A stretch of 62,112 bases of DNA, the filler included, from Caldilineae bacterium (lineage in GTDB: Bacteria > Chloroflexota > Anaerolineae > DTLA01): assembly GCA_037446815.1 (NCBI GenBank). It is 3 parts of 3 records of this genome, joined end to end, with 100 filler letters (N's around TTAATTAATTAA, not from the genome) between each part and the next. Parts side by side here need not be neighbours in the genome. Positions count along the whole stretch, not along the records: positions 42,262 to 62,112 come from JBBIHX010000044.1; 2 more parts are not named here. One strand, given 5' to 3'. Below the pieces are notes generated by a model. The model did not search any database, was not told the DNA's origin, and was given only the letters and a program-made list of their open reading frames with translations. This document shows, in pieces, positions 38,217 through 60,494 of the stretch (positions within the stretch are counted from its first letter, which is position 1; the number at the start of each line of letters is the position of its first letter). The position numbers and the translations under genes were made by a program.

Positions 38217-38231
38217 GTCTCCGCCACAAGG

Positions 38232-38382
38232 GACTCGGTTCCATCTTGTGTTGGTCTGCCCCGCGCGCCGCCTCTCCACTTTGTCATGCTGAGCCGAAGG
38301 CGAAGCATCTCGGTCAGCGAGATTCTTCGCGGCTTCGCCGCTCAGAATGACGGTAGATGCCAGCGGACTTTGGAACCGAGTC
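38232..38382. mobile_element. MITE (151 bp) with 8-bp target duplication CCACAAGG
   Basis: GACTCGGTTCCA...TGGAACCGAGTC; duplication at 38224-38231 and 38383-38390. Confidence 0.88.
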
Positions 38383-38584
38383 CCACAAGGACACACCGCG
38401 GGGGCGCAGAAGGCGCAGAGGGCACAGACCGCGGGCCATTCTCAGCGTCGCGGGGCTAAAGCCGCCGCGCTAAGGGTAGCACGGGGCGGCGCGTCCGGCC
38501 TGCCCGCTCGCGGAGGGGGCGGGCACGAAGGCGAGGTCGGGCGGGTGGCTTCCCTTCGCCCGCAATGACGGATGGGTGCAACGT

Positions 38585-38609
38585 GCGACGCGCCTCGGAG
38601 GTGCGTCGC
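38585..38609. repeat. GACGCRCCTCGGAGGTGCGTC hairpin repeat
   Basis: Second copy at 44106-44140. Confidence 0.6.
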
Positions 38610-38762
38610 GCGTTCCCCTTCGCGCGGATTCGCGGTTACAAGAACTGTCATTCTGGGCGGCGAAGCGCGGACGAATCTCGCGTCCCCATTCGTGTTATCT
38701 GTGGATACACACGGCCCGCTTTGCCCCATCAGGACAGCAGAACGCGCAGACCGCGCAGGAGC

Positions 38763-40430
38763 CTAGGGCGTGGGCGTCGGCGTGGGCGTGCGCGTGCCCG
38801 CGAGCCACACGAAACTGCGCGGGGCGCTCTCCGCGCCGGCGGCAGGCCATAGGTCCGCGTTGCCCGGAATCCCCTCGCTGACCCGCACCCGCACGCTCAC
38901 GCTCCAGTACAGCCGTCCCGACGGCGGTCGCAACAGCCAGACGTAGGCGGGCACCTGCCACTGGGTGTCGCGGGTAACGCCTACCTCCTCGCCCCGCTCG
39001 TGGGGAATGCGCACCACGTACCACTCGTCATCGGCCAGCGGCCCCACATCCGTCCAGCGCAGGACGATGGCCTCCTGAGGCTCAAAATGCATCTCGTTGG
39101 GCGGCGCCAAGAGCGTGGGTGCGGGATGCAGCGCGCGCGTCGGCGTGGGGGTGGGCGGCTGGGGCGTGGCCGTGGGCGCGGGGGTCCACGTGGACGTTGG
39201 CGGGGGCGGCGTCGGCGTGTCGGTCGGCGCGGTCGTCGCCGTCGGCGTGTCCGCTGGCTGCGGCGTATCCGTCGGCGCGACCACCACGGGCGCCGTGGCC
39301 GTGGGCGCGGGCGTGGGGGGCTGGGTGGGACGAACGGTGGGCGTAGCCGTCGCGGGCGGCGAGGCGACGGGCCTGGGCCGTGTCAACGCCCAGATGCCCC
39401 CGCCGATGAGTGCGACAGATGCGGCCAGCGCCAGGATGGCGGCGCCGTACCGACGCCTGGCTGTCCTGCGCGGCCGCGCCGATGGCATGGCGGCTTCGGG
39501 CGACTCCCCGCCCAGCACGCGGGTAGCCCTGCGGAGCCATTGGCGCGCCTCGGCGTCCTTGGGGTTCAGGCGCAGGGCGTGGCCAGCCAGTTCGGCGACC
39601 CGGTCCCACTGACCGAGACGGGCCGCCGCGCGGGCCTGTTGCGCCAGCGCCTGCGCCCGCCGTCGCTGCTCCTGGCGACGGCGACGGCGACTTTCGCGCG
39701 GGGGTGGCCCCGCCGTCTGCGCGGCCTGCACGAAAGCATCGCTGAACTCGCGGAAATCCGCGAAAGCCTTGCCCTCGTACCCCACCCCGCGCATGAGGAC
39801 GCGCCACATCTCCGGCCCCAGGCGGTCCTCGGCCCGCCGCCAGGGGATGCCCGGGCGGCGCATGGTGGCGTCGGTGCGGGAGAAGGGCGCGCCCACCACC
39901 ATCTCGTGCGCCAGGTTCGCCAGCGCCTCCGTATCCTTCTCCGGCGTGTGGGTCCCCAGCGCCATGCCGAAATCCAGCACGGTTACCTGATCGTCGTCGC
40001 TGAGCCAGATGCTGCGGTCCTGCAGGTTGCCGTGGGAGAGCCAGCGCTCGTTGAGGTACTGGAGCGCGTCCGCGATTTGGCTGACGATGAAGGCGGCCCG
40101 CAGGGGGAAGATGGGGCTTTCGGCGCGCAGGCGGTCGGCCAGGGTAACGCCTTCCGCCGGACGGAAGGACAGAAACGGCAGCCCTTCGGCCTCGCCGACT
40201 TCGTAGACCTGGGGCAGGTTGGGGTGGCTGAGGCTTGAGGCCAGGCGCGCGGCGCGCTGGAACTGCTCCGCGGTCGCGGGGTCTGACGCCAGGTCGCCAT
40301 CCAGCACCCGCACCCACACGTCGCGGTCGTAGTGGGTGTCGTGGGCGCGGTAGATGGTGCCAAATCCGTCGCGCAGCACCACACCGCGCAGTTCATACCG
40401 TCCAAATTGGCGCGGAAACGTCTCGGCCAT
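38763..40430 (-). CDS. Membrane Ser/Thr kinase-like protein (probable pseudokinase) with Pro/Thr linker and extracellular domain
   Basis: Hanks-type N-lobe and DFG present, catalytic motifs degenerate; one TM helix. Confidence 0.75.
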   Translation of the reverse strand: MAETFPRQFGRYELRGVVLRDGFGTIYRAHDTHYDRDVWVRVLDGDLASDPATAEQFQRAARLASSLSHPNLPQVYEVGEAEGLPFLSFRPAEGVTLADRLRAESPIFPLRAAFIVSQIADALQYLNERWLSHGNLQDRSIWLSDDDQVTVLDFGMALGTHTPEKDTEALANLAHEMVVGAPFSRTDATMRRPGIPWRRAEDRLGPEMWRVLMRGVGYEGKAFADFREFSDAFVQAAQTAGPPPRESRRRRRQEQRRRAQALAQQARAAARLGQWDRVAELAGHALRLNPKDAEARQWLRRATRVLGGESPEAAMPSARPRRTARRRYGAAILALAASVALIGGGIWALTRPRPVASPPATATPTVRPTQPPTPAPTATAPVVVAPTDTPQPADTPTATTAPTDTPTPPPPTSTWTPAPTATPQPPTPTPTRALHPAPTLLAPPNEMHFEPQEAIVLRWTDVGPLADDEWYVVRIPHERGEEVGVTRDTQWQVPAYVWLLRPPSGRLYWSVSVRVRVSEGIPGNADLWPAAGAESAPRSFVWLAGTRTPTPTPTP

Positions 40431-40463
40431 GTCGCCCCCATCGCACTGCGGCAACGCGGGCGC

Positions 40464-40493: not shown

Positions 40494-40510
40494 GCGCGGA
40501 CGCGGAGCGG

Positions 40511-40685
40511 GATTCGGTTGCAAACTGTGTTGGTCTGTCCCGCGCGCCGCCTCCCCACTCTGTTATGCTGAGCCGAAGGCGCCGCTCCCTCGCCCTTCGG
40601 GAGAGGGCCGGGGTGAGGGGCGAGATTCTTCGCGGCTTCGCCGCTCAGAATGACAGTGGATGCCAACAGACTTTGGAACCGAGTC
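40511..40685. mobile_element. MITE (175 bp) with 9-bp target duplication GCGGAGCGG
   Basis: GATTCGGTTGCAAACTGTGTTGGT...CCAACAGACTTTGGAACCGAGTC; duplication at 40502-40510 and 40686-40694; degenerate older end follows at 40694. Confidence 0.88.
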
Positions 40686-42161: not shown

Positions 42162-42261
42162 NNNNNNNNNNNNNNNNNNNNNNNNNNNNNNNNNNNNNNN
42201 NNNNNTTAATTAATTAANNNNNNNNNNNNNNNNNNNNNNNNNNNNNNNNNNNNNNNNNNNN
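42162..42261. other. Assembly gap with artificial linker
   Basis: N runs flanking TTAATTAATTAA. Confidence 0.95.
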
Positions 42262-42497
42262 CGCCCGCGCGCACACGCCCCCGCGCCCCCTCCGCCACAC
42301 TCACCGCGCTAGGCGCATGTGCGACCGCATCCATGCCCTTCCAAACATCTGGTGTCTTTCCACGCTGCATTGATGTAGACGACGCTGAACACCAATACTC
42401 CCGTTATGGGGACATTCACGTGAACTTCCTGGAACTCCAGTTTCACATCGGAAGGCGCGGTGATCTCGGTTATCGGAGCATCTTGTCCTGCTCAGAG

Positions 42498-42758
42498 TCA
42501 GTAGTCGCAGTCTTCACTCTCATCCCAGTAGTCGTAGTCTTCACTTTCATCGTAGATCAGCCAGAAGTCGGGCGGGAACCCGTAGTCGTAGTCGGGTTCG
42601 TAGAAGTGGGGTTGGGGGGTGGGCTGGGGGTTCGGGCGTGGGGGCAATCCGCGCAACTTCCGGATAACAGTGTCAACGGCTGAGGCCACGATGTAGACGA
42701 TTGCCAGCAGCATGAAGAGCACCGCGAAGCCGCCGAACACTATGAAGTCAATCCACAT
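42498..42758 (-). CDS. Small single-TM protein with Pro-rich linker and Asp/Tyr-rich tail
   Basis: GGAGG RBS; MWIDFIVFGGFAVLFMLLAIVYIV...YDESEDYDYWDESEDCDY. Confidence 0.6.
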   Translation of the reverse strand: MWIDFIVFGGFAVLFMLLAIVYIVASAVDTVIRKLRGLPPRPNPQPTPQPHFYEPDYDYGFPPDFWLIYDESEDYDYWDESEDCDY

Positions 42759-42891
42759 TTGTCCCTCCATTGTGGACAGTATCCGAGCATGGTTTTGGAC
42801 GTCAGGGCCAGTTGCACGTCCCGCAACGAGCCGATAATGACGTATCCATGCCCTTCCAGGCATTAGGCGTCTTTCGACGCACCCAGCACGG

Positions 42892-42993
42892 TCAATAGCC
42901 GAGCCGGTACAGGACCTTGCCTACGATCACGACTCGCTTGGGATCTTGCGTGCTGTTTTCCAACTGGTCCGTCATGAGGTACTTGAGGTTCAT
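42892..42993 (-). CDS. 33-aa small ORF coupled to RNase H gene
   Basis: ATGA overlap with RNase H stop, AAGGAG RBS; MNLKYLMTDQLENSTQDPKRVVIVGKVLYRLGY. Confidence 0.4.
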   Translation of the reverse strand: MNLKYLMTDQLENSTQDPKRVVIVGKVLYRLGY

Positions 42994-43430
42994 TTTGCCA
43001 TCTCCTTTACAGCATTTCGGGCAAGCTCGTCGGCGCGCTTCCCTTGTTCAGACGAGCATCGGGCGACCCAGTAAACTCGTATCTTGGGATTCCGGGCAAG
43101 GGCCTTCGCGAGGCGTTCCCAGAGATCCACGTCGGGAACGTTCCGCCCGGTCCACCACCGCCACTCCGGGTCTGCCCATTTGGGTAGTGTGCCGTCGGCG
43201 ATGGCCCTGGGGATGATGCGGTAATCCGTGAAGATCCTGACCGGGCAGTTCGTGTTGGCGAAGCGTTCCGCCACGGCGAGAACGGCCTGGAGTTCCATGC
43301 GGTGGATGGTGGTGGACTCCGCCTTGCCCTGGAGGATCTCCTCGGAGTCGGCGTTTCGGATCACGGCCACCCACGCCCCCGGCCCGGGATTCCCAAGACA
43401 CGATCCGTCGGTGTAAGCATTGTAGGTCAT
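42990..43430 (-). CDS. rnhA: Ribonuclease HI family protein
   Basis: YTDGSCLGNPGPG, TTIHRMELQA, FTD, DLWERL, WV...RADELA. Confidence 0.88.
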   Translation of the reverse strand: MTYNAYTDGSCLGNPGPGAWVAVIRNADSEEILQGKAESTTIHRMELQAVLAVAERFANTNCPVRIFTDYRIIPRAIADGTLPKWADPEWRWWTGRNVPDVDLWERLAKALARNPKIRVYWVARCSSEQGKRADELARNAVKEMAK

Positions 43431-43551
43431 GGTTCACTCCGGGTTGCCAAAGTCCGTATCCATGCCCTTCCGGGCATTAGTTGTCTTCCCTCGCGTTCCC
43501 AGGGTGGGAGGACCGCCCCATTGCAGGGCGGCCTCCACCTTGGCTTCCAGA

Positions 43552-43676
43552 TTACTCTGTTTCTTCGGACTCGTCGCCATAGCCCATTCGCTGGTCGAAC
43601 CAGGCTTGCACGTGAGCGCCCGACATGAACCCGACCCAGAAGAACTGGTCCATGAACATCATGCCCATGTTGCGCA
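43552..43676 (-). CDS. 3' fragment of a small ORF (5' part in gap)
   Basis: Open frame ...RNMGMMFMDQFFWVGFMSGAHVQAWFDQRMGYGDESEETE*, followed by a hairpin at about 43502-43540. Confidence 0.35.
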
Positions 43677-44105
43677 NNNNNNNNNNNNNNNNNNNNNNNN
43701 NNNNNNNNNNNNNNNNNNNNNNNNNNNNNNNNNNNNNNNNNNNNNNNNNNNNNNNNNNNNNNNNNNNNNNNNNNNNAGCGGCATTCCCAAGTGGGTTCAG
43801 GTTGTGGCGGCGTGCCGCTTCGCAGCGTCATTCACAAGGTGGTGGCATCTCGCTCCGTTCTCCTCCTAGGACCGGTCAAGTCATGGGCCGCAGGGGGTTC
43901 TGAACCCCCCACGACGGTATCAACGCCCTCCCAGGACCCCTGGCCTGACGTTGCCCTCCTCCGTCAGCCTTCTTTTTGCCCACATCATAACCGACGTCGC
44001 GACAACTAGTGTCGCGTTGGGGACAAATTGGGCATTCTCGTGAGCGAAGCAATGCAATCTCGCGTGTGTGGGGATTGTTGTGCGCGCAATGACAGGTAGG
44101 ACAAC

Positions 44106-44140
44106 AACATACGACGCACCTCGGAGGTGCGTCGTATGTT
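44106..44140. terminator. Perfect hairpin downstream of the molybdoenzyme gene (repeat-derived, possible terminator)
   Basis: AACATACGACGCACCTC-G-GAGGTGCGTCGTATGTT. Confidence 0.45.
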
Positions 44141-44188
44141 CGCTACTCGTGCAGATTCGCGTTATTCGCGGAGGCCATCCAACCGGAA

Positions 44189-47100
44189 TCAGGCCCGCTC
44201 CACCCGTATCCGCGTGTCGTAGAAGACCGCGCTCCCGCCGACCAAGTCGCGCAAGCATGTGTTCGGATTGTGGGTGTCCGTACGCATGGCGGCGTTGGCG
44301 TGCACCCCGGTGATGCGGCGCCGATCCCCCTTGACGGTAACGCCGTCCACGATGATGTCCGTGCCGCCGTAGGCCCAATGCCCGTGACCCAACGAGAAGG
44401 CCACGACGCCAGGCCGAATCCCCTCAATCACCTTCAACTGCCCGACCATCGGCCATTCCGTCCCGTTGCCCAAATTCCACACGCCGGTGGGGTTCGTCTT
44501 GGACGAGATGCGAACGGTGTCGCCATCGCGGAGACCCAGCCGCGCCGCATCCTGCCGGTTCATCAGAACGAAGTTCTGAGGCAACACCCCCTGCAGCCAG
44601 TAGTTGCCGCTCGTTCGGCTCTTCGTCTGGACAATCTCGCGGTACGTGATGAGGTGCAGGTCGTAGCCCTCCTTCTCGTCCTCCAACAGATTGCCCAAAG
44701 CGTCGGTGGGCGCCGGGAAGTATCGCGGCACTCCCGACCAATGCTGGCCCGTCATGGAGTCCTTGACGTCATAGGTTTTCTCGCAGTACAAATTGATGTA
44801 CTTCCCATACTTGTTGGCCACCAGCGCGCCCTTGGTGGCCTTGCTCCAATCCTGGAACCTTCCGCCGCGGTTCAGGACGTACACCACCTTGCGCCACCAC
44901 TCATCGCCCACGGCAGCCTTCCATACCTCCGGGTCAAAGACCGTCTTGGGAAGGTGCCGCCTCGCCTCTAGGAAGATGCGCATCTCCTCGTCGTCAGCGT
45001 CGGGCACGACCTCGCCCGGCTCGCCCTTCTCGGGGTCCGGCTTCTTATCGCCGAAGGCCAGATTCGCCACCTCCTTCAGGTACAAATCCTCGCCCCGGAC
45101 GAACGGCTTCCCGTCGCCGAACCCGTTCGGGCCAAACCCCGGAAGCCCAAGCCGCTCGGCCAGGCCCAGGAGCATAGCCTCCAGGCTCAAGGGCTGCTCC
45201 ACGCCGAACACCTTGACGGTCTCCGTCAGCGGCGCAATCACCGGCTGCCGCACCGGGGCATTCTTCACCAGAACCGACGGGTGCGACTTGTGGAACTCCC
45301 ACCGCTCCAGGTACGAGAGGTCTGGGAAGATGTAGTCCGCGTACATGCTGGTCTCGCCCACCGTGATATCGGAGCAAATGAACAGCGGGAGTTTCTTGGG
45401 ATCCTTGAGCACCTGTATGTTGGTGTGCCCGGCGGGCAGCGCGTACACCGGCGACCCCATGTACAGGATCACCGCTTTGATGGGATACGGATACGCATCG
45501 CCGATAGACGGCACCAGTTCCTCGTAGATGTCGGATGACAGCGGGAACCAGGGCCGCTTGGCCGGGTAGCCGTCGCGATCGTAGAGGGTGCTCTCCTGAT
45601 ATTTGCTGCTCCGGATGATGGTGATGCCGAACGGGCTTATCTTCCCCGGGTGCATCGCGCTGATGGGGAAAGGCTGCCCCGGCTTTCCACCCGCCTGCTC
45701 GTAGGCGCTGGTCTTGATCATGCCCCCGGCGTAATCATAGTTGCCCACCAAGAGGTTGAGCGCAAACCATGCCTGGACGTTGTAGTACCCGTTGGTGTGC
45801 TGGCTCGCGCCGCGGTGCACATCGGCAGCGGATTTGCGCCCGTGCTTCACGAATTCGGCGGCGATGGCCCGCACGTCTGAAGCCGAAACGCCGCAGATGT
45901 CGGCCCACTCCTCCAGCGAGTGCTCGGCGGCCGCGTCGTACAGCACCTGCAAGGCGCTCTTCACGCGGCTGTCGCCGTCCTTGCCCTTGAGCGTCGTGTC
46001 CACCAGCAAGTCCCCTTCCACGGCAACCTTTGCATCGTTCGGGTCAAAGGGGACAGGCTGGCCGTCTTTGAGCACGACAAACGGGTCAAAATCCCACTGG
46101 CCGGAACCGCTCGCCTTGTCCCGCTTCTCCGGAGCGAGGCCGAGGTCCGAGCCGCGCAGCAACTTGCCCGGGCGCCCCTGCGCGTCCACTTTCACCAGCC
46201 ACGAGGCATTGCAGTAGGTCGGCTCCTTATCGGCGTCGGCGGCGGCCTTGTTCGCGTTCGCCAGATAGCCCTTGTTGTAGGCGTCCGCCTCTATGACAAG
46301 GCGGATGAGAGCCAGAGCAAGCGCGCCTTCGGTGCCCGGCTTTGCCGGAAGCCATTTCCACGCCTTGGCGGCCGTCTTGGAGAGGCGGGGGTCCACCACC
46401 ACATAGCGGAGCCGCCCAGATGCCAGCCCCTCGGTGATCCTGCGAGCGCGGAGCGGTGGGCCGTAGTTCCCCTCAAATGGCGACGCCCCGACGAAGATTA
46501 CGAACTCCGCATTCTCCAGGTCGCACTGCCAGTAGAACTTGTCGCCCCCGGTGAACTTCCCCTCCGAGAACTGTTCGCTCATGGCCTTGCCGGTGAAGTA
46601 CAGGCTGCCCTGGCACACCGTCGTGTGTCCGTGGGCATTGATGGAGCCGAATGCGTTCAGCGTGAAACGCTTGATGAGGTCGGCCCGCCCATCTTTCAGC
46701 CTGCCCCAGATGAAGCAGAACTGGTTGTTCTTGGGGCCCAAGTCGGGATGGTCGGGGTCAATCAAGGTGTCCAGGTGAGCCGCATACTTGGACTTGAACT
46801 CTTCTACCAGAGCCTTGCGCTTCGCCTTATCTTTCTCGGCCGCGATTTTGGCCACGTCCGCGGCCATATCCTTCGCAACCTGGGGGTCGCGCAGCGCGTA
46901 CAGGTCCTTGAGCCCATCCACATGGCCTTCGCCGAAGAGATTGCCGCCGTTCACGATTTCATCCAGCGCCTGGTCAAAGGGTATGGAGACCCACTTGCCG
47001 CTGCCGCGCGGGCCCGCTCGCTTCAGGACCTGCCGAATCCGATAAGGGTCGTACACCGTCTGCACCCCTGCTTGGCCCTTGGGGCATATCCACCCCTCCA

Positions 47101-47413
47101 GGCGCGCCGATTCCTTCGGCGATGTTACGTATGGGATGTGCGGCCACATGGACATCGGGCTGTACGGGCTCCCGTCAATCTTGACCGCGACGCCCTCTTG
47201 TATCTTGACCTTGATGCCACAACCCGTGTTGCACTGCAGACAGGTGGTGTGTATCTGAGTCTCTGGCCGTGCGAAGGGATAGTCGTTGCGCTCAAGCCCT
47301 GCTGCCGCTGCCGGCTTTCCCTGTCGCGCCAGCACCGAGAGTGCAGACTCCAAAACGGCCGTTCCCCCGAGGAAAGCCGTCGTTTTCAGAAAATCTCGCC
47401 GGGTGAAATCCAT
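44189..47413 (-). CDS. Tat-exported molybdopterin oxidoreductase catalytic subunit, TtrA/SrdA-like
   Basis: TRRDFLK Tat motif; CLQCNTGC...CPKG; YDPYR; ADYIFPD..YLER; C-terminal FYDTRIRV. Confidence 0.85.
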
Positions 47414-47452
47414 CGCTAACCTCCAACTGTGAGATGCTTATCCTGCGCGGCC

Positions 47453-48694
47453 CTAGCCGGCCGCGCCTTCGGCCTCGCGCTCCAGGGGCAACAGCCCCAC
47501 CCCCAAAGCGAAGAGGATAAACGCGATACCTATGGCGAACACGGACACGAGCCACTCCATTGCCGTCGGCACATACCGCGCGATGTAGTTGAGATGCGGC
47601 TCTATGAATGCCGTCTCTATGCCGGGCAACTCGGCCGTCGCGAAGCCGGGCAGAACGATGTTCCACCGAATGCCCACGAACCCCACCACCGAGATGAGCG
47701 CCGCCAGGCCCGTCGCGAGGCCGCTGCGACGACCCACTGTAACCAGGAGCACCGACGGAATGCCCACGGCGAATCCGAGGCCCAGCACCCAGAAGATCCA
47801 CCAATTGGGGCCGAACAATTGCTCATGGATCGGCACAAAGTGCGACGGCGCGGTCCCATACAGGCTCACCAGAAACTCGGCCACCTCCATGAGCACCTCA
47901 ATAAAGATCAACCCCAACAGCAAGCGCCCCAGCGCCAGCACGGTCTCCTTGTTCTTCTGGTAGCCGTTGGGGATGACAAAGGCCGCAACGGCCGTCAGGA
48001 GCGCGCCGCCGGAAGCCAGCGCCGACACCAGGAACAGCAGCGGGAACAGGCCGCTGTACCAGTACGCGCGGGCGATTGTAACGGCAAAGACCGTACCGGT
48101 GCCGCCATGAAACGCAATGGCCAGCGGCACGCCGATGGCGCCCAGGACACGCACAACCCGCAGGTCGCGTTCCTCCGCTTCGTGTGAGCCATCCTTTGTG
48201 CCCAGGGCGAGCACCCGGTACAGCCTGCTCTTGAATCCCTGCCCGGAAGCCCCACGGGCGAAACTGCGCCGCATGAGGAACCACGCCTCGGCCAACAAGA
48301 GCACCAGGTAAGCCGTGTACAGCCAGACAATCCACGCCAGAGGAGATTCAAAGTCCGGGCGGAAGAACACCTCGGCGAAACGCTCCATGTGCCCCAGGTC
48401 CACCCAGATGAAGAGCAGCGCCGTCAGTAGGGCGATGAGGGCCGTAAACACGGCGATGCGCCCCACCGGCTCAAAACGCTTCATGCCGAATACATACACC
48501 AGAGAGGAAATCAGGAATGCGCCGGCCGACAGGCCGATGAAGTAGATGTAGAAGACCACCCACAGCGCCCAGGGGACAGGAGACCCGTACCCGACGTGAA
48601 GCAACCCATAGCGGATGCGGTCCACCATGCCCACCGACCCTGCCAGCACGGCCAGGATGCCGATGCCGAGAAGCAGCCACAAGCGTTTTCGCAT
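47453..48694 (-). CDS. NrfD/PsrC family membrane anchor
   Basis: VPWALWVVFYIYFIGLSAG, DLGHMER, SPLAW, RWNIV. Confidence 0.9.
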   Translation of the reverse strand: MRKRLWLLLGIGILAVLAGSVGMVDRIRYGLLHVGYGSPVPWALWVVFYIYFIGLSAGAFLISSLVYVFGMKRFEPVGRIAVFTALIALLTALLFIWVDLGHMERFAEVFFRPDFESPLAWIVWLYTAYLVLLLAEAWFLMRRSFARGASGQGFKSRLYRVLALGTKDGSHEAEERDLRVVRVLGAIGVPLAIAFHGGTGTVFAVTIARAYWYSGLFPLLFLVSALASGGALLTAVAAFVIPNGYQKNKETVLALGRLLLGLIFIEVLMEVAEFLVSLYGTAPSHFVPIHEQLFGPNWWIFWVLGLGFAVGIPSVLLVTVGRRSGLATGLAALISVVGFVGIRWNIVLPGFATAELPGIETAFIEPHLNYIARYVPTAMEWLVSVFAIGIAFILFALGVGLLPLEREAEGAAG

Positions 48695-48706
48695 CTTCCC
48701 CCCTCC

Positions 48707-49438
48707 CTACAGCAAGTAGTAGACGCTGGGCTCCGTGCCCAACTCTTCCTTGAGGCGCATTACGCGGGGTGAACTGGCCGCCTGGGCCACAAGGCTCTCG
48801 GGGTCGTTCAAATCCCCGAAAATGCGCGCGCCGCCGATGCACGTGCTGATGCAAGCCGGCAGCATCCCAGCTTCCAGCCTGTGCAGACAGAACGTGCACT
48901 TGCGGGCATTCCCGATGGGCGACTCGTTCCGCCTGTCCGGCGTGCGACTATGCTTGCGCCCGTACTCGTAGGCGGGCGCAGTATCGTAAGCCGCAACGGT
49001 CGGCGTCTGACCTGCGGTGTAGAAATCGCCAAAGTCAAAACTGCGCGCCCCGTACGGGCAGGCCGCCAAGCAATAGCGGCAGCCGATGCACACATCGTAG
49101 TTGACGATGACAATGCCATCGGGCCTGCGGTAGGTCGCATTGACGGGGCACACTTTGGTGCACGGGGGATGTTCGCACTGCTGGCATGGGCGAGGCAGGA
49201 ACCGGCGCGTAACGTTGGGGTAGCGGCCAATCTCCTCTTCAATCACCACGTGGTAGGAAACGCCCGGTGGGGTCTTGTTCTCGGACTTGCACGCGATGGT
49301 GCAGGCGTTGCAGCCCACGCACTTGAGCAGGTCTATCGCCATCCCCCAGTGCCTCTCGTGCATGGGCTTCTTGAGCGCCCGATCCAGGTCCTCGTGCATT
49401 CGCAGAATCATGTTTTCCACTTGCAGCAATACAGGCAT
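48707..49438 (-). CDS. 4Fe-4S dicluster subunit (TtrB/NrfC-like)
   Basis: [43 protein letters not shown]. Confidence 0.92.
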
Positions 49439-49439
49439 A

Positions 49440-50111
49440 TCACTCCCTCCTTTCTATCTGACACTCTACAGCAACTGCCACCTTGTGCTTCGGCGTAGGG
49501 CTTGCCAGCGCCGCGTGAGGGCCAGCGGGCACAGCCAACTGGGCCTGGGCCAGGTCCTCAGGCGTGTTCAGATTGCGGAACGATCGGAAGTCGGGATCCA
49601 GACGGGCGATCGCTTCCGACTCCAGGTAGCGCGTTCGCACCAGCGGGTACAAGTCCAGGGGGCACAGTTGCCCCGACTTCAGCATCCCCTCAATGGGCTC
49701 CAGGCACGCGCGCGAATACACCGCCAGCAGGGGCTCCAAGTGATCATCCACGCGCGGCACCAGGACATCCCAGCCTTCCGCCATCCGCACCATGTGGCGC
49801 AAGAGGCTGGGGCTCAAGAAGGGCATGTCGCATGCCGCGATGACACAATACGGGAAACCCGCAACACGCAGCGCAGTGTGAATGCCCCCCAGCGGGCCGG
49901 CATCCGGAATTAGGTCATGTGTCCCGCGCAGGCCAAGCCACGGATACTGCTCCGCGCCCCTACCCACCAAGAACACGTCATCACTCACCGAGCGAAGCGC
50001 ACGGGCCACGCGCTGGACAATGGGAACTCCCCCCACGGTCAACAGGGCCTTGTCCATTCCCATGCGGCGGCTCTTGCCGCCAACCAGCACCGCGCCACTC
50101 ACTCTGTGCAT
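49440..50111 (-). CDS. mobA: Molybdenum cofactor guanylyltransferase
   Basis: [34 protein letters not shown]. Confidence 0.92.
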
Positions 50112-50114
50112 GCG

Positions 50115-51344
50115 CTATCTCCCATCGCCTGCCCGAACGCGACGGGCCAGAAGGCCCCGCCGAACCTGATCCAGCAGGATGCCAATGCCGAACCCCAGGG
50201 CCAGGTTCTGCGTCGCAAACCCCACGCCGGCAATGGTCAAGGCAATGGCCAACTCATCCCACGTGCGCAGGTCACGGACCAACATCCCATGCTGAAACCC
50301 CACAAACCCCAGGAGCACCCCGAGCACGGGGTATGGGATGAGCATCAAGATAGGAACGACGTTCCCATCCACGAAGAGCGCAAGCGCCAAGCAGAGGACA
50401 CCCATCAACGCCGGAGCCAGACCCGACCGCGCGCCGAACTTGTAGTGCGCGGTCAGCCCGCCAGAGCCATGACACACAGGAGCGCCGCCGAAGAGGGCCG
50501 CTACCAGTTGGAATATCCCCATCGTCTTCAGCAAGTTCTGGGGCGTAACCCGCGCAGCACGATAGCCGAAGTACTGCTGGGCAGTGTCCACCGTGGCGAA
50601 TACCGCGTTGCCCAACGTCAGCGGAATCTGCGGCAGCACCAAGAAGACGAAGGCGCTCGCCAAGTCGCTTGCACTGGGCAACCCCGGCTTCGGCAGGCTC
50701 ACCCCCACCCGCACTTCGCCCAGAACGGAGCGGAGTCCGCCGCTGACTGCGACGGTCAGCACCCCGCACAGGACTAGAATCAGGGCGGAGGGCCAACCCT
50801 TGCGTCGGCGCATCAGCCACGCAAGCAGGAGAATCATGCCGCCGGTCAGCAGCCAACTGACGGGGATGGATCGGCCGGCCAGGTGCAGCGCGGCTTCGGG
50901 CGCTCCCCCAACCATCTGGGAGCGGGTAGCCAGCGAGATGCCGCTCCGCAGCAGCAGCGCGCCGACACCCAACTGTATGCCGCGAACCACCGGCCGGCTG
51001 AACAGTTGGCCGATGCGGGTTCCAAGGCCCGTGAAGGCGAAGACAAGCAGAAGAATGCCCATCCACCAACCCGCCGCCACGACCGTGCTGGCGCGAAGTT
51101 GCTGCGCAACGGCAATCGCCGCGACGGCCTTGAGGGGCTGTACCGGGAGCGGAAGGCCATAGAACAGGCCGGTGGCCAAATACGCGACGCCGAAACCGAA
51201 GAAGACGCCCGTGGCCGATAGGCCGTTCACCGTAATCAGGGCAGCAGCGATGGGCAGCAGGACGCCGATATCCCCAAACGCCCCGCTGATTTCGCCCCAT
51301 GCGAGGCGAAACCCTGTCTGCGCTCCTCGTTGGCGCTTGGCCAT
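50115..51344 (-). CDS. Putative molybdate/sulfate transporter (MOT1-like)
   Basis: EISGAFGDIG, PLPVQPLKA, PQIPLTLGNAV, CHGSGGL.AHY.FGAR. Confidence 0.85.
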   Translation of the reverse strand: MAKRQRGAQTGFRLAWGEISGAFGDIGVLLPIAAALITVNGLSATGVFFGFGVAYLATGLFYGLPLPVQPLKAVAAIAVAQQLRASTVVAAGWWMGILLLVFAFTGLGTRIGQLFSRPVVRGIQLGVGALLLRSGISLATRSQMVGGAPEAALHLAGRSIPVSWLLTGGMILLLAWLMRRRKGWPSALILVLCGVLTVAVSGGLRSVLGEVRVGVSLPKPGLPSASDLASAFVFLVLPQIPLTLGNAVFATVDTAQQYFGYRAARVTPQNLLKTMGIFQLVAALFGGAPVCHGSGGLTAHYKFGARSGLAPALMGVLCLALALFVDGNVVPILMLIPYPVLGVLLGFVGFQHGMLVRDLRTWDELAIALTIAGVGFATQNLALGFGIGILLDQVRRGLLARRVRAGDGR

Positions 51345-51460
51345 AGATGAGTGTCCTCTAGCGTGTCAGGACGCCTTCGGGCCTTCCTCACCGCATTGGC
51401 GCAAGGAATGCCCATCGTCCCATCAGGGTCAGTATAGGGCGAACGAGAAGCGCTGTATAG

Positions 51461-51518
51461 AAGGGAAACTATGGCAACGTGTAGGGGAAACTCCTGGAAA
51501 CGGGTAGGGGAAAACCCT
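51461..51518. promoter_or_regulatory. Repeated response-regulator-like binding sites
   Basis: GTAGGGGAAACTCCT (51481) and GTAGGGGAAAACCCT (51504), weaker copy at 51461; -10 TATACT at 51431-51436 on minus strand. Confidence 0.55.
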
Positions 51519-51535
51519 TGTGAGCCCAATCGCTT

Positions 51536-52225
51536 TCAGGGCTCCAACAGCCCTCGCTCCATTGCGTACCGGACGATATCGGCCCGCGTCTGGAATCCGA
51601 GTTTTACCATCAGGCGCGCGCGGTACGTCTCCACCGTCTTCACGCTGAGGCATAACGTGTCGGCGGCCTGCTGATTCGTATAGCCCAACGCGATGAGGCG
51701 GAGCACCTCCTGCTCTCTCGGGCTGAGTTGGGGCTCCGCGGCTTCCGGCTGACGGGACTTCCCGCGCTCCGCCATGCTATCCAGGAGGAGTCTCGCGTGG
51801 GACGGATGCAAATACGTGCCGCCGCTGTGCACGGCGCGGATGGCGGACAGGAGCTCCGTATCGGCGGCCTGCTTCAGCACGTAGCCGGAAGCGCCTGCGG
51901 CGAGAGCCTCGCGCACGTGGGCCTCGTCGTCGTGCATGGTGAGGATGAGAACACGGGGCGGTCTGGGGAGCTCGCCGATATGCCGCAGCGCGTCCAACCC
52001 ACCCACGCGCGGCATGGTGATGTCCAGCAGCACGATGTCCGGCGCGACCTCGCGAATCCGTGGCAGCACCTCGCTGCCGTCTGCGGCCTCGCCCACAACC
52101 TCAATGTCCGGCTCCGCATCTAGCAACATGCGCAGCCCGGCGCGCAACACGGCGTGATCGTCCGCGATTAGGACTCGGATAGGGGCGGCTGTGCCAAGTC
52201 GTTTGTCCCTTGTGGCTGCACCCAT
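51536..52225 (-). CDS. NarL/LuxR family response regulator
   Basis: IADDH, LLDITMP, GYVLK, LSPREQEVL...SVKTVETY. Confidence 0.93.
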   Translation of the reverse strand: MGAATRDKRLGTAAPIRVLIADDHAVLRAGLRMLLDAEPDIEVVGEAADGSEVLPRIREVAPDIVLLDITMPRVGGLDALRHIGELPRPPRVLILTMHDDEAHVREALAAGASGYVLKQAADTELLSAIRAVHSGGTYLHPSHARLLLDSMAERGKSRQPEAAEPQLSPREQEVLRLIALGYTNQQAADTLCLSVKTVETYRARLMVKLGFQTRADIVRYAMERGLLEP

Positions 52226-54180
52226 AATGCCTCCAGAGGTATCTCCACGGAGATCGTTGTCCCCGCGCCTGGGCTGGATTCAATCATGAATCGCCCGCCC
52301 ACAAGAGAGGCTCGTTCCTCCATGCCGTACAGGCCCAGGCTCTCGCGCGTCGCCGATTGGCCCATCGCCCGCGCGGGGTCAAATCCCACGCCGTCGTCCT
52401 CTATCAGCAGGACAATGGCATCGGGGCGGCGTTCCAGCAGCACGCTGGCGCGGGTGGCTTTCGCATGCCGGGCGATGTTTGTCAGCGCCTCTTGCACGAT
52501 GCGATACAAAGTGCTCTCAATCTCCCGCGGCAACCGCATGTCTTCAAACCCCGCTGCGACGAAATCCGCTCGGAATCCGAACCGTGCCGCTTGCGCGCTG
52601 ACGTAGCGCCTCAACGCCGGCACCAGGCCCAGGTCGTCCAGGGCCGCGGGCCGCAGTTCAAACGCCAAATCCCGCACCGATTCCAGGGTTTCGGATACCA
52701 AGCCGCGTAACTCCGCCGCGAGCGCGCGCGCCTGTTCCAGCGTGCGTGCGCCCTCCATGACCTTGAGGGCAACCAGGAGCGAAGTCATGGCCTGGCCGGT
52801 CTCATCGTGCAACTCTCGCGCGATGCGACGCCGCTCGTCTTCCTGCGCGGCGATGGTCTTGCGCAAGAGGTGTCCGCGCATCGCCTCCTTGCGGCGCAGT
52901 TCCTCCCACAGTCGGGCATTCTCAAAGGCCAGGCCCAGTTGGCGCCCCACCGCGGACAGCAGGGCCATGTCCGGCGCGTCAAAGCAACTTCCGTGCGCGC
53001 AGACTAGATTGAGGAGCCCCACAACGCGCTCGTTCACAAGCAGCGGAACAGCCACATGCCCGGACGCGCTGCGGGCATCTCCCGCAGTCGCGCCAGCCGG
53101 GCATCCTTCAGGGAGTGGTCGGATGATGACAACTTCGCCGGTCTCTATCGCGCGGCGACAGGCCTTGCACTCCCCGCAACATGCGCGGTCCGCCCGATAG
53201 CGTGGTGCTCCGGCGCCGTGAGTGCAAATGCGGCAGGACATGTCATTGTCCAGGATGCATATCCAGCCGCCAGGCGCCCCCATGAGGGCCGTTACGCGGT
53301 CAAGCGCGCGCTCCAGCGCCTCTTCCTGGCCCAGCGGGCCCGATAGCGCATGGGAAACCTCGTAGAGGACCGACAGTTCTCGGTTCCGCTGCCACAACTG
53401 CTCATTGGCGGCCTCCATCTCCCTGCGCGACCGATCCAGCGTTTCCACCATCACGTTGAACGTCGCCTGCAGTTGGCCGATCTCGTCCGAAGCCCAGGGC
53501 GTAAGGCGGTGCGCCAAGTCGCCGCCCGCGACACGGTTCGCCGCGTCCCCAAGTTCCATGATGGGGCGGAGGAGGAGCCACGTCAACCCCAGGCTAATCG
53601 CAATGCCCAGAAGGGACACGGCGACGGTGGTCAAGAGAATGCGGCGGGTGATGCTCTGCGTCGTAGCCGTCATGCGGTTCAGCGACATGCCTATCCGCGC
53701 AATGCCCGCGCGTCCCTCAAAGACCGGAACCGCGATGTCTTGGATCAACCCTTCTTCGGTTTGGAGGATTTCCACGTGGTGCGACTCGCCCGGCGGCAGG
53801 ACATTGGCGGCCAGAAGGTCGGTCGGAAAACCGCTGTCAAACGAGTCGGCCAGCACCCGCCCGCGGGGGTCCAGGACAAACGCGTAGCGCACATCCTGGT
53901 TAGCCGGCACAACGCCGTGCATGAGTTCGTGGAGCACATACAGATTGTTGGTCAGGATGGGATCGGTGGCACGATTCGCCAGGTCGTGGGCGATGGACAG
54001 CCCCCGCTGTTCCAGTTCCCACCGAAGCGTTTGGGTTACCAACTCGTGCACCAGAGCGCTTGTGCTCAAGCCCAGGAGGATAATCATTGCCAGGGCGATG
54101 CCCACTACCTTGGTGCGCAGGCTAACCCCGCCAACCAGTCGCCAGATCGCGCGCGCCCACCTGTGCGATTGCCCGCTCAC
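52168..54180 (-). CDS. HAMP-GAF sensor histidine kinase (HisKA_3)
   Basis: Two TM helices, HAMP, ERRRIARELHD, QEALTNIARH, DDGVGF, GLYGMEER. Confidence 0.92.
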   Translation of the reverse strand: MSGQSHRWARAIWRLVGGVSLRTKVVGIALAMIILLGLSTSALVHELVTQTLRWELEQRGLSIAHDLANRATDPILTNNLYVLHELMHGVVPANQDVRYAFVLDPRGRVLADSFDSGFPTDLLAANVLPPGESHHVEILQTEEGLIQDIAVPVFEGRAGIARIGMSLNRMTATTQSITRRILLTTVAVSLLGIAISLGLTWLLLRPIMELGDAANRVAGGDLAHRLTPWASDEIGQLQATFNVMVETLDRSRREMEAANEQLWQRNRELSVLYEVSHALSGPLGQEEALERALDRVTALMGAPGGWICILDNDMSCRICTHGAGAPRYRADRACCGECKACRRAIETGEVVIIRPLPEGCPAGATAGDARSASGHVAVPLLVNERVVGLLNLVCAHGSCFDAPDMALLSAVGRQLGLAFENARLWEELRRKEAMRGHLLRKTIAAQEDERRRIARELHDETGQAMTSLLVALKVMEGARTLEQARALAAELRGLVSETLESVRDLAFELRPAALDDLGLVPALRRYVSAQAARFGFRADFVAAGFEDMRLPREIESTLYRIVQEALTNIARHAKATRASVLLERRPDAIVLLIEDDGVGFDPARAMGQSATRESLGLYGMEERASLVGGRFMIESSPGAGTTISVEIPLEALWVQPQGTNDLAQPPLSES

Positions 54181-55112
54181 TGCAGTCCTCCGATGGCCGT
54201 GAATACGGCGCGCGCCGAATCGTAGAGCGCATCGTCGGCGGGCACGAAGCGGTCAACGCCCAGCGGCGCGAGCACCTGCCGGCCTTCCTCCGTTTGATGC
54301 ATCTCCAGGAGCAACTGGCGCAAGCGGGATTTGGTGGCGGCATCCAAAGAAGGGTGTACCACCACCGGCGGCGCTCCGTAGGGCGGCGACTGCCAGAGCA
54401 CACGAATCCGCTCGCCATAGTCCGGCCTCTCCAAGAGCATGGCACGGTACACCAGGCTATCCACCGCCGCTCCATCCACCCACCCCTCGGCCACGGCCTT
54501 GATGGAGTTCTCGTGGCTGTACGTGAACAGGGTGCGGCTGAAGAAGGTGTCCGGGGTTGCCTCCATCTCGGTCAAGAGCACGTGCAGGGGCACCAGGTAC
54601 CCAGAAAGCGATAGGGGGTCGGTGAACGCAAAAACGCGTCCCCGAAGATCGCCGATGGTCTGCGCCGGGCTGCTCGCGGGAACGATGAGATACGAGTGAT
54701 AGGTCGCCTCGCCACCGATTTCCGGCACGGCCAGAAGTTCCATGCCGAACTCTCGGCGCCCCCGGATGTAGGCTCCGGTGCAGACAAACGCCAGGTCAAC
54801 TTGGCGGGTGCGGACAAGTTCGTTGGTTTCGGCATACGTGGCGCGCTGTACCAGGCGCGCAGGGCGGCCCAGGGCAGCCGACAGGTAGGCGATGAGGCGG
54901 TCGTAGTCGGCTGTCGTGGTCCTTGGCGAGAGCATAGCAGCAACCGCGACGCGGAGCGCTTCGTCCTCCGGCGCCGCCGAGGTTGCCGGGGTAACGCGGG
55001 TGTCAGGCTTCAGGCTGACCTGCCTGTACCGGGTCTGGTCGCTACAGGCAGCGGCCAGCACCAGCAGGACTACCAGCGTCAGCACAGAAATACAGGCGAG
55101 TCTCCGACCCAA
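54177..55112 (-). CDS. PhnD-like oxyanion substrate-binding lipoprotein
   Basis: Lipobox AAAC; 'FAFTDPLSLSG', 'SHENSIKAV..G.VDGAAVD'; no ABC permease adjacent. Confidence 0.85.
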   Translation of the reverse strand: MGRRLACISVLTLVVLLVLAAACSDQTRYRQVSLKPDTRVTPATSAAPEDEALRVAVAAMLSPRTTTADYDRLIAYLSAALGRPARLVQRATYAETNELVRTRQVDLAFVCTGAYIRGRREFGMELLAVPEIGGEATYHSYLIVPASSPAQTIGDLRGRVFAFTDPLSLSGYLVPLHVLLTEMEATPDTFFSRTLFTYSHENSIKAVAEGWVDGAAVDSLVYRAMLLERPDYGERIRVLWQSPPYGAPPVVVHPSLDAATKSRLRQLLLEMHQTEEGRQVLAPLGVDRFVPADDALYDSARAVFTAIGGLQ

Positions 55113-55325
55113 GTGTTCCTCCTCGGGAGTGCTCTCAAGAGCATTATACGCCCCTGGGAAGTGGCGTCAAAGGAGGGTAGCGCACAAATCCCGGTGGCAC
55201 CCAGGGATTTGGAGGAGGAGAGGCCGTATCGCCTTCGGCTCAGCAGGACGGAACAAGGGGAAGATCGCGCGCGGGCGGGCCAGAGCGAGACCCAACCAAG
55301 CCCAGGGTGCAGGCGAATCGCCCAC

Positions 55326-56333
55326 CTACTCCCCCGCGAGGTAAGAGGACGCCCACGGCTGGGGCTTCAAGAACGTGGCTTCGTACCAGGCTGCGGCGTC
55401 GGCCAGCGTCTCGCCGAGGGTGCGATGATGGTACCCTAACTCGCGCTCGGCCTTGGCGCTGGACGCCCAGAAGGCATAATGGTAGAACGTGGCGACGCTC
55501 TTCTCCACCAGGGGTTGGGAGATAAGCGCCGAGATTTCCGACAACATCTCCAGCACTTCCCACGAAAGCGGCCAGATGGTTCGGTTGAAGTCGGTTACCT
55601 CACGCAAGAAGCGGAACACGGCAACCGTGTCGGTATTCTCGCCGCCTAGGATGTAACGCTCCCCCAACCGCCCGTTGCGGTAGGCCAGAATAATCCCCTC
55701 GGCCACATCCCGCACGTCCACCAGATTCAGTCGCCACGCCACGACGAACGGATTGATGCGATGGAAGAACAACTTGAGCAGCGCCGACGAAGGCGAGTGG
55801 AAATTATCCTCCGGACCGATCATCCCGCCAGGGTTCACAATCACAGCGGGCAATCCCTGCCGCATCTGTTCTAGCACGAGCCGTTCGGCGCGCACCTTGG
55901 AGTCCAGATACGGCGTCCCAACGTCCTCCGAGCGCAGCGGGCAGGTTTCATCCACGATGCTGTCGTCGGAAGGGCCTTCCAGCGTGCCGACCATGCTTAC
56001 GTGCACCACGCGCTGCACGCCGGCATCCATCGCCGCCTGCATCACATTTCGGGTGCCCCCCACATTCACGGCGAAAATCTCGTCGGCGTCCTTTGCGCTC
56101 AAGGTAACCTTGGCCGCCAGGTGGAAGACCCCGTCGCACCCCTCCACCGCCCTGCGCACATCCTCCGGCGAGGTGATGTCGCCCTGAACGATATCCAGCG
56201 GCAGATTGGTCTGACCGCGCAGCCCCTCTGGGTTTCGCGCCAGGACGCGGACGCTGTAGTGCCGCTGGACGAGGGCGCGCACCAAGTGCAGGCCCAGGAA
56301 CCCCGTGCCACCGGTAACCAGGACTGTTTCCAT
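55326..56333 (-). CDS. NAD-dependent epimerase/dehydratase (HpnA/DFR-like)
   Basis: TGGTGFLG, FHLAA, YLDSK, VDVRDVA, GERYILGG. Confidence 0.9.
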   Translation of the reverse strand: METVLVTGGTGFLGLHLVRALVQRHYSVRVLARNPEGLRGQTNLPLDIVQGDITSPEDVRRAVEGCDGVFHLAAKVTLSAKDADEIFAVNVGGTRNVMQAAMDAGVQRVVHVSMVGTLEGPSDDSIVDETCPLRSEDVGTPYLDSKVRAERLVLEQMRQGLPAVIVNPGGMIGPEDNFHSPSSALLKLFFHRINPFVVAWRLNLVDVRDVAEGIILAYRNGRLGERYILGGENTDTVAVFRFLREVTDFNRTIWPLSWEVLEMLSEISALISQPLVEKSVATFYHYAFWASSAKAERELGYHHRTLGETLADAAAWYEATFLKPQPWASSYLAGE

Positions 56334-56393
56334 CTGCGTGTTCTCCCTGCAACGTCAAGTCGGTATTCTAGGCAAGTCGCGCCCCGACGCCAA

Positions 56394-57461: not shown

Positions 57462-57470
57462 AGGTCCCCT

Positions 57471-58529
57471 CTACGAATAGCGATGACACGCCACGCTGTA
57501 GTTCGGGCCGATTTGCCTCAGCGGCGGCTCCTCGTCCTTGCAGATATCGCCGAGGCGGGCGAAGCAACGCGGATGGAACCGACATCCCGAAGGCGGGTCT
57601 ATGGGGCTCGGCACGTTCCCCTCCAGGATAATCCGCTGCCGCCGAGATGCCCTCTCCACGCGCGGCACAGCGGCCAGCAGCGCCTGGGTGTAGGGGTGAA
57701 GCGGCTCCGCAAAAAGCAAATCCGTCGGCCCTGTCTCCACGATCTTCCCCAGGTACATGATGGTAACCCGATCGCTGATGTGGTAGATGAGGCTGAGGTC
57801 GTGGGCCACGAAGAGATAGGTCAAGTGAAACTCGGCCTGGAGTTCCTTCAGCAGGTTGATGACCTGGGCCTGGATGGACACGTCCAGCGAGGAGACCGGC
57901 TCATCGGCGACAATGAACTTGGGGCGCATGGCCAGCGCGCGGGCGATGCCGATGCGCTGGCGCTGGCCGCCGCTGAACTGGTGCGGGTAGCGGTCAATGT
58001 GGCGGCGGCTGAGCCCCACCCGACTCAACAGGTACAGAATTTCGCCTTCCAGTTCCTGGATGCCGGTTACGCCTCGCGCGCGCAGCGGCACCGACAGGAT
58101 TTCGCGCACCGTCTTGCGCGGATTCAGCGACGAATACGGGTTCTGGAAGATGATTTGGGCGGAGCGGCGGAACTCCCGGTCGGTCATGCGTTGGACAGGG
58201 CCGTTGTCATCGTCTCCGAACACCACCTTGCCGCCGAAGAGCATGCGCCCCGCCGTCGGCTCATGCAAGCGCGTGAGCACCCGTCCCAGCGTCGTCTTGC
58301 CGCAACCTGATTCGCCTGCCAGGCCCACCGTCTCGCCTGGGTACACCGTGAGGTCCACCCCATCCACGGCCTTGAGGATCTGCACGCGGCGGCGCGCCAG
58401 GACCCGCGCCAGCAGGCTCGGCCGGATGTAGAAATACTTGCGGATGCCGGTCGCCGCAATCAGCGGGGCGGGCATCTGTGGCCCTTGCTCGCTCTCCACG
58501 ACATGGTTCTCGTCCAACAACGCTTGCAT
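57471..58529 (-). CDS. Peptide ABC transporter ATP-binding protein (DppF/OppF-like)
   Basis: [36 protein letters not shown]. Confidence 0.93.
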
Positions 58530-58541
58530 GGCACCTTCTCT

Positions 58542-59552
<1,011 letters not shown>

Positions 59553-59560
59553 CGCGCCTC

Positions 59561-60481: not shown

Positions 60482-60494
60482 GGCCCTCCCCCTG

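Follow-up and report, generated by a model that had tools for sequence, protein, structure and literature searches.

A ~40-nt repeated module lies between small, unrelated, co-oriented genes at a scaffold end of an Anaerolineae chromosome

A 62,112-base stretch of the Caldilineae bacterium assembly GCA_037446815.1 (the window) was analyzed around a short repeat, referred to here as the module, that lies between small genes at one end of a scaffold. The window consists of three scaffolds joined by two N44-TTAATTAATTAA-N44 linkers at 21038-21137 and 42162-42261. Both linkers are artificial joins with stops in all six frames, so that the sequence below 42162 is no genomic neighbor of the repeats; what the original prediction had taken for a gap at 42162-42261 is one of these linkers, set between unrelated scaffolds. 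The third scaffold (42262-62112, 19,851 bp) has an internal 100-N gap at 43677-43776. Three full copies of the module, R1 to R3, were found within the 1,415-bp piece bounded by this gap and the scaffold end, and 65 nt of G-rich sequence separate R3 from the physical end.

The repeats lie between open reading frames (ORFs) and on their sense strand, with the upstream stop codons 59, 13, and 134 nt away from R1, R2, and R3, respectively (Table 1). The start-to-start spacing of the repeats is 515 and 614, and the intervals between them measure 478 and 577 bp; a further ~424 bp, including the 100 N, separate R1 from a half copy of the module. Four ORFs of the array have a gene-like GC content at third codon positions (GC3) of 0.76-0.80, compared to 0.76-0.89 in the genes of the genome; two further ORFs, which overlap the repeats and have a GC3 of 0.56-0.63, are probably not genes. 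The overall GC content of the 1,415-bp piece is 59.4%, a modest drop from the 63.8% found in the remainder of the third scaffold and the 68.0% of the scaffold before it. The intervals of 478, 577, and about 420 bp, the co-oriented ORFs inside them, and the lower GC content had all been given correctly in the original prediction. Its general picture of repeats between whole, co-oriented genes was likewise borne out, the genes being small and unrelated and the segment strain specific; its specific link to CRISPR and Cas6 was not.

A repeat finder returned a single family of 40-nt direct repeats on the minus strand, with R2 as the reference copy (100%) and R3 and R1 showing 83% and 85% identity to it. 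Pairwise identity within the 40-nt block is 34/40, 31/40, and 33/40, corresponding to 78-85%. When the copies were aligned together with their flanks, the likeness began at GCG and ended at CG, covering ~40 nt, and the sequences on both sides were unrelated; the three repeats predicted earlier thus stood in position and strand, whereas their length of 37 bp was too short. Allowing up to three mismatches, the 22-nt core of the repeat occurred three times in the window compared to a mean of 0.00 and a maximum of 0 in 100 dinucleotide-preserving shuffles. The 19-nt 3' half occurred four times versus 0.01 expected, a number reached in 0 of 100 shuffles. The fourth of these occurrences, with three mismatches, is the half copy, which had also been listed in the original prediction; it was taken as real because it lies on the same strand, ~420 nt upstream of R1 across the gap. 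With filters off, a covariance model built from the three copies scored R1 at 63.9, R2 at 62.5, and R3 at 61.0 bits, the next best match reaching 10.5 bits (E = 1), and no further copies of the module were found by it in the 62-kb window. The half copy was missed by this full-length model. As the 3' arm, it is part of a larger hairpin whose stability is unusual (z -3.23), with none of 200 shuffles folding equally well.

That the family is an artefact, either a chance similarity or the misassembly of a short contig, is extremely unlikely. The piece is only 1,415 bp long and bounded by the 100-N gap and the scaffold end, as a misassembled fragment could be, but zero copies were expected by chance and three were seen. 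Moreover, the copies differ at 6-9 positions and have unrelated flanks, a pattern that neither assembly collapse nor duplication gives, and the half copy beyond the 100-N gap supports the scaffold join.

The consensus of the module is GCG-NN-G-N-AAGAC-NN-C-NN-AUGYYY-GGAA-GGGCAU-GGAURCG (~40 nt). Its core is formed by a 6-bp stem AUGCCC/GGGCAU with a GGAA tetraloop, followed by GGAURCG, a conserved 3' tail of 6-7 nt. The layout proposed originally, a hairpin followed by exactly 8 nt, was obtained only with the stem cut to 4 bp. Pairing is kept in 18 of 18 stem cells; four of these cells are substituted, all by C-to-U changes in the 5' arm, and G-U pairing is thereby retained on the gene-sense strand but not on the opposite one. 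The hairpin energies on the sense and antisense strands are -10.5/-9.1 kcal/mol for R1, -7.9/-5.6 kcal/mol for R2, and -2.7/0 kcal/mol for R3, which means that the sense-strand hairpin is the more stable one in all copies and that the antisense hairpin of R3 is gone. Variation is concentrated in the 5' part of the module, with 10 of 23 columns varying there versus 1 of 17 in the 3' part (Fisher p = 0.012), and the constrained core GGAAGGGCAUGGAURCG is the sole part kept in the half copy. This asymmetry of constraint is firmer than the evidence from stem pairing, which is suggestive only. Extended pairings differ between the copies, the common structure being the 16-nt hairpin only; an upstream hairpin GCGUC-GAAA-GACGC was rejected as a part of the module, as it occurs in R2 only.

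Table 1. Features of the array and its upstream neighbor, in order along the minus strand (positions in the window)
Feature	Position	Strand	Remarks
Molybdopterin oxidoreductase gene	44189-47413	-	Stop at 44189; the array starts just downstream of its operon
Half copy of the repeat (3' half)	43917-43935	-	16/19 match; the most degenerate copy and the first one; lies 254 nt past the oxidoreductase stop
Start of the first unit	43777-43848	-	6-codon upstream ORF MPPPCE (43848-43828), its stop overlaps the start codon (ATG, 43831) of an ORF that extends into the gap; coding status putative
C-terminal ORF end out of the gap	43552-43676	-	Ends in MGMMFMDQFFWVGFMSGAHVQAWFDQRMGYGDESEETE and a stop; GC3 0.80; no family match
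GC-rich hairpin	43499-43542	-	-29 kcal/mol; between the ORF stop and R1; without a following U tract
Repeat R1	43455-43494	-	40-nt block; hairpin AUGCCC-GGAA-GGGCAU, tail GGAUACG
RNase HI-like gene	42990-43430	-	146 aa; starts 25 nt after R1
33-aa ORF	42892-42993	-	ATG overlaps the RNase H stop (ATGA); GC3 0.79; no family match
Repeat R2	42841-42880	-	40-nt block; one C-to-U change in the 5' arm, giving a G-U pair
Gene for orphan 86-aa protein	42498-42758	-	Starts 83 nt after R2
Repeat R3	42326-42365	-	40-nt block; three C-to-U changes in the 5' arm, all giving G-U pairs; weak hairpin

An ATG, formed by the first three bases of the hairpin, is present inside each repeat and opens a frame reading MPGRAWIR.../MFGRAWMR... 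(43427-43477, 42498-42863, and 42301-42348, minus strand). From R1 this frame runs for 16 codons, its TGA overlapping the RNase H ATG, and from R2 it continues in phase into the 86-aa protein, so that a 121-aa ORF results. The R3 frame ends after 15 codons and contains Pro-to-Phe and Ile-to-Met changes. Translational coupling via the repeat ATG is possible, with a good Shine-Dalgarno sequence absent in two of the three copies. Coding as the cause of repeat conservation was disfavored by the amino acid changes in R3 and by two of the three copies being without a usable Shine-Dalgarno sequence. At the start of the first unit, the short upstream ORF MPPPCE (43828-43848, minus strand) stands behind a strong AGGAGG, and its Pro-Pro-Pro run could stall ribosomes.

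The conserved 3' block could also be read as double-stranded DNA. As a dedicated promoter or operator, recognized by an alternative sigma factor, a mobile-element RNA polymerase, or a regulator, the module would make each unit its own transcription unit. The contiguous conserved 17-nt block GGAAGGGCATGGATRCG, located 25-83 nt upstream of the starts, fits variable 5' untranslated regions; the module has a single orientation relative to the genes, and the RNase H matches phage and cellular families about equally, which leaves a phage or prophage origin possible. We nevertheless consider this explanation unlikely. No sigma-70-like -35/-10 pair was found (0 promoters in 42262-44400 versus a shuffle mean of 0.6), which argues against a plain housekeeping promoter. 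By-eye comparison with consensus sequences gave nothing convincing for sigma-54, sigma-28, or extracytoplasmic function (ECF)-type spacing, and the same holds for the CsrA-type GGA motif, lambda-type boxA/boxB, dif/Xer sites, and N4-type hairpin promoters. Phage structural and polymerase genes are absent from the window, blastn of the 1,415-bp piece and of a 51-nt repeat segment against 50,697 phage records gave no match, and the changes in the palindrome are one-sided. The single terminator-like call on any repeat was made on the antisense strand of R1, and no U tract follows the hairpin on the sense strand.

The explanation that we favor, tentatively and with somewhat less than even confidence, is that the module is a shared cis-acting intergenic element, transcribed together with the genes, which binds one factor for common posttranscriptional control and doubles as a recombination handle for gain and loss of genes. 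We infer its action at the RNA level, the dedicated factor, and the role in recombination. According to this model, the locus is a short strain-specific array of small accessory genes that starts downstream of the molybdopterin-oxidoreductase operon and continues to the scaffold end, with each gene unit headed by one ~40-nt copy of the module. The 3' half, comprising the 6-bp hairpin, the GGAA tetraloop, and the single-stranded tail of 6-7 nt, would be the putative site for a sequence-specific factor encoded outside the window, through which all units would be adjusted at once in their processing, stability, or translation. Units may be gained, lost, and shuffled by recombination at the module, which would be the likeliest place for it because it is the sole sequence common to the otherwise unrelated units.

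Several observations favor a shared element of this kind. The module is discrete, with sharp edges and with unrelated flanks and cargo around its ~40 nt, and its 3' half is under the stronger constraint. The G-U pairs, kept in the gene sense only, are suggestive of a sequence read as RNA. The presence of the module at the array only, within 62 kb, favors a dedicated element. Its constant placement between ORFs on their sense strand, the lack of a sigma-70-like promoter, the strain-specific cargo, and the precedents of repeated intergenic modules around shuffled small genes (PMC2839356; bioRxiv 10.1101/471110) point the same way.

Other observations weigh against it. No candidate binding factor was found in the window, and no related locus was recovered for a comparison of gain and loss. 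The variable distance from the repeat to the next start codon speaks against a simple translational operator. The half copy at the edge, consisting of the 3' half only, is at least as easily explained by a crossover within a DNA site. The evidence amounts to three full copies and a half copy on a fragment of 1.4 kb, and the 1,415-bp piece belongs to a metagenome-type scaffold, where it is linked to the remainder only across the 100-N gap. The strand argument drawn from the C-to-U changes is weak (p roughly 0.01-0.1), because C-to-T is the commonest mutation and half of the stem transitions keep pairing; single stem substitutions that keep pairing are 6 of 36 possible ones and 6 of 12 among transitions. 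No double compensatory change occurs in the stem among the three full copies, the shuffle control of stem pairing was uninformative with three sequences (500 of 500 shuffles reach the observed value), and the hairpin of R3 is marginal at -2.7 kcal/mol.

In the original prediction, the repeats were regarded as possibly CRISPR-derived. They would then serve either as Cas6-type sites at which a long transcript is cut into gene-sized units, or as Racr-like decoys on a mobile element. The length of 37-40 nt, the hairpin towards the 3' end, and the short conserved 3' tail ending in AUAC are reminiscent of class 1 repeats. Mobile elements do carry solitary repeat units, and widely so; such units occur between the genes of these elements and share this length and layout with the module. 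A total of 2,193 were described, of which 2,103 are viral and 90 are plasmid borne, a Racr being defined there as a solitary repeat on a mobile element with at least 90% identity to a known CRISPR repeat and matching the host subtype (PMC10651486). The module, in contrast, is neither solitary, with its 3-4 copies, nor part of a regular array. The intervals of 478 and 577 bp hold genes and are ten times the length of a CRISPR spacer, and the copies, 31-34/40 identical (78-85%), are not near-identical. With the whole stem counted, the tail is 6-7 nt long and not 8. The degenerate copy stands at the upstream end, the would-be leader end, whereas CRISPR arrays generally decay at the far end.

The searches pointed in the same direction. 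Rfam, including its CRISPR-DR families, gave no relevant match in the repeat region at E<=10, with STnc320, bxd_2, and sR17 appearing as weak matches far below their gathering scores. No cas, integrase, transposase, recombinase, or phage families were found by Pfam among the 56 ORFs of the window, as the original prediction had stated for cas and integrase genes. PADLOC found no cas gene in the five cassette ORFs and 11 further ORF calls, of which at least four are on the wrong strand (13046-18655, minus strand), and NCBIfam gave no family match for these 11. An exact scan for the 22-nt core ATGNNNGGAAGGGCATGGATRC in one genome each of 185,579 species, which would miss repeats differing at one or two core positions, returned 11 loci with one match each in unrelated taxa. 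These 11 matches were rejected as chance, about nine being expected by our own rough estimate and none of them having the upstream half of the repeat. Since only single matches were returned, no species representative scanned carries an array with the exact core, and a match of the array type, which would speak for a CRISPR origin, was thus not obtained. The core was absent from the seven supplementary files of the study of solitary repeats (PMC10651486), and as text in the literature it gave nothing relevant, the one match being an unrelated paper on Vibrio gene expression. A literature search for Cas6 processing of polycistronic mRNAs found nothing relevant. By its defining features the array is not CRISPR, and a CRISPR origin of the repeats is very unlikely.

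The cargo of the array was analyzed gene by gene. The RNase HI-like protein matched Pfam PF00075 (9.1e-19; 68.5 bits versus a cutoff of 25.8) and PHROG 531 (7.3e-26), the phage-family score being about equal to the cellular one. Its score with the NCBIfam RNase HI model, 97 bits, is below the equivalog cutoff of 160, and the protein is therefore not of the housekeeping type. Residues 5-146 were aligned with PDB 1RIL (1.6e-23); D8, E46, and D69 face identical residues of 1RIL and D133 faces an Asp of the chain, these four being what we take to be the catalytic positions of RNase H. The best non-self relative among 471 hits is 43% identical. A tblastn search of the RNase H against phages gave 697 records, all below 60% identity and 36-39% identical among the 15 matches listed, and is uninformative on the origin of the gene.

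The 86-aa protein has an N-terminal hydrophobic stretch, which by eye looks like a single transmembrane helix, then a Pro-rich linker and an acidic and aromatic DY-rich tail. The tail (42498-42593, minus strand) contains 27-nt tandem-like repeats encoding acidic and Tyr-rich units (DYDY, ESEDYDYW). A word-indexed search of 5.8 billion clusters recovered the protein itself only, and an exhaustive search of 1.84 billion representatives recovered itself and two low-complexity partial matches; the best atlas score of 0.81 was at the noise level. At the DNA level, blastn against plasmids gave three weak matches (E 0.3-3), rejected as chance; two of these lie within ABC-transporter genes.

The host, on the other hand, has close relatives in public data. 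The glutaminyl-tRNA synthetase (GlnRS) of the first scaffold matched 16 clusters at 94-97% identity, those with names being "Chloroflexi bacterium" and "Anaerolineales bacterium", and the next tier, at ~81% identity, was "Anaerolineae bacterium". The host thus belongs to a lineage of Anaerolineae (Chloroflexota) that is well sampled. As the cargo has no close relatives although those of the host are well sampled, the segment is strain specific, and the cargo is strain-specific accessory material. Outside the array, the window is ordinary chromosome (Pfam, 56 ORFs).

A canonical integron cassette array without integrase (CALIN), with the repeats as attC sites, would agree with the architecture, the unit size, the orphan cargo, and the co-orientation of the genes. 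However, neither strand of 42262-44190 has an RYYYAAC or GTTRRRY box in or around a repeat, and the single motif match in this region is at 44177-44183, beside the oxidoreductase stop. An attC site is described as made up of R and L boxes, with the AAC/GTT triplet as its best-conserved feature and a variable terminal structure of 20-100 nt (PMC4889954). The conserved block here is 40 nt long with a 16-nt hairpin, its extended pairing is not common to the copies, and intI is absent from the window. Canonical attC is excluded, and we give a CALIN next to no credence.

It is doubtful, though possible, that the repeats are DNA recombination sites of an integron-like or rAID-like capture system other than an integron, with a recombinase encoded beyond the scaffold end that would insert and excise circular units by a crossover within the 40-nt site. 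One or two small genes, unrelated and co-oriented, are found in each unit (515 and 614 bp), the cargo is strain specific, and the array adjoins a conserved operon and an assembly break. The first copy keeps the 3' half only, as would a hybrid of a chromosomal target and a cassette site, and the 3' half is near-invariant while the 5' half is variable. A precedent is provided by repeated intergenic sequences associated with a XerD-like recombinase (bioRxiv 10.1101/471110), and Chloroflexi are among the integron-carrying phyla (PMC4889954). Yet no recombinase, integrase, or transposase family was recognized in the window, and the palindrome comprises only 6+4+6 nt, which is short for the core sites of tyrosine or serine recombinases. 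The 3' part of the half copy diverges at 3 of 19 positions versus 0-1 of 19 in the full copies, a misfit with a fresh hybrid site. In R3 the three C-to-T changes break the DNA palindrome. No second locus with different cargo between the same sites was recovered. Rather unlikely, too, is the bolder form of this idea, in which the module would be the attachment site of an undescribed integron-like capture system in Chloroflexota, unrelated to attC and served by a recombinase or an RNA-guided or Cas6-like factor beyond the scaffold end, with small promoterless genes being stacked downstream of a fixed chromosomal point.

Other repeated and structured sequences were observed in the window. After the oxidoreductase stop, a perfect 17-bp hairpin (44106-44140) lies within a 37-nt near-perfect palindrome (44105-44141; -28 kcal/mol), for which Rfam gave a weak STnc320 match of 26 bits versus a gathering score of 50. 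An 84% identical copy of this palindrome is present at 38579-38615 on a different scaffold, and the pair looks like a dispersed terminator or REP-like element distinct from the module. An element of ~150-175 bp occurs in two direct copies (88-94% identical; 38230-38382 and 40509-40685) around a Ser/Thr-kinase-like gene (38763-40454), with a partial inverted copy at 38644-38681 between them; it may be a miniature inverted-repeat transposable element (MITE)-like or a duplicated intergenic element. In the whole window, Rfam identified two tRNAs only, and at 5310-7293 a tRNA-Gln (CTG) gene shares its strand with the glutaminyl-tRNA synthetase gene, whose start is ~210 nt away. At 13004-18628, plus strand, lie ordinary metabolic genes (DUF1385, TPR, Ldh_2, LarA-like, and CCG/Fe-S) with a GC3 of 0.78-0.87, and the long minus-strand ORFs opposite to them (up to 818 aa, GC3 0.62-0.68) are their shadows. 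As these shadow ORFs illustrate, picking the longest ORF is a poor way of calling genes in this GC-rich genome.

The locus is a lead and not yet a discovery. Were the module to act as a common control element or as a recombination handle, the locus would show unrelated small genes stacked and swapped behind one short sequence in a setting other than phages, Bacteroidales, and integrons. A shared element would also bear on the recruitment of accessory genes in Chloroflexota, a phylum with little experimental genetics.

Among known systems, the PeSL (promoter-early stem-loop) regulatory cassettes of T4-type phages consist of a promoter and a stem-loop flanking orphan genes, and recombination between these modules excises or inserts the genes as mini-circles (PMC2839356). 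The array shares with them a repeated intergenic stem-loop module, placed around small orphan genes of a hypervariable region, that gives unrelated units a common homology. As described in that source, PeSLs are ~100 bp long and include both a sigma-70 promoter of the consensus type and a terminator that works, whereas the module is 40 nt long and neither was found in it on the sense strand; their host is a phage, and the module lies in a bacterial chromosome with no phage genes in view. The rAID-1 clusters of Bacteroidales resemble the array in their co-directional small genes, lower GC content, and repetitive intergenic sequences, and are defined by a 5' XerD-like recombinase and immunity-gene cargo (bioRxiv 10.1101/471110). 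Here, in contrast, the 5' neighbor is the molybdopterin oxidoreductase, the window has no recombinase, the cargo consists of the RNase HI-like gene and orphans, and the phylum is a different one. With no sigma-70-like promoter and no recombinase in view, the module falls outside the definitions of both PeSL and rAID-1. REP/BIME sequences are short intergenic palindromic repeats within operons that are able to act on mRNA stability and are dispersed genome-wide, unlike the module, which was found in one 1.6-kb stretch of the 62 kb searched. With integrons and CALINs, the array has in common the unit size, the one or two promoterless-looking ORFs per unit, the co-orientation, the orphan cargo, and the chimeric-looking first site (PMC4889954). 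The module differs from attC by having no R'/R'' boxes with AAC/GTT, no long imperfect palindrome, and no intI, and its strand tolerant of G-U/G-T pairs is the coding strand, whereas attC sites fold on the bottom strand. If it were a true capture site, it would represent a second, independent solution to the problem that integrons solve.

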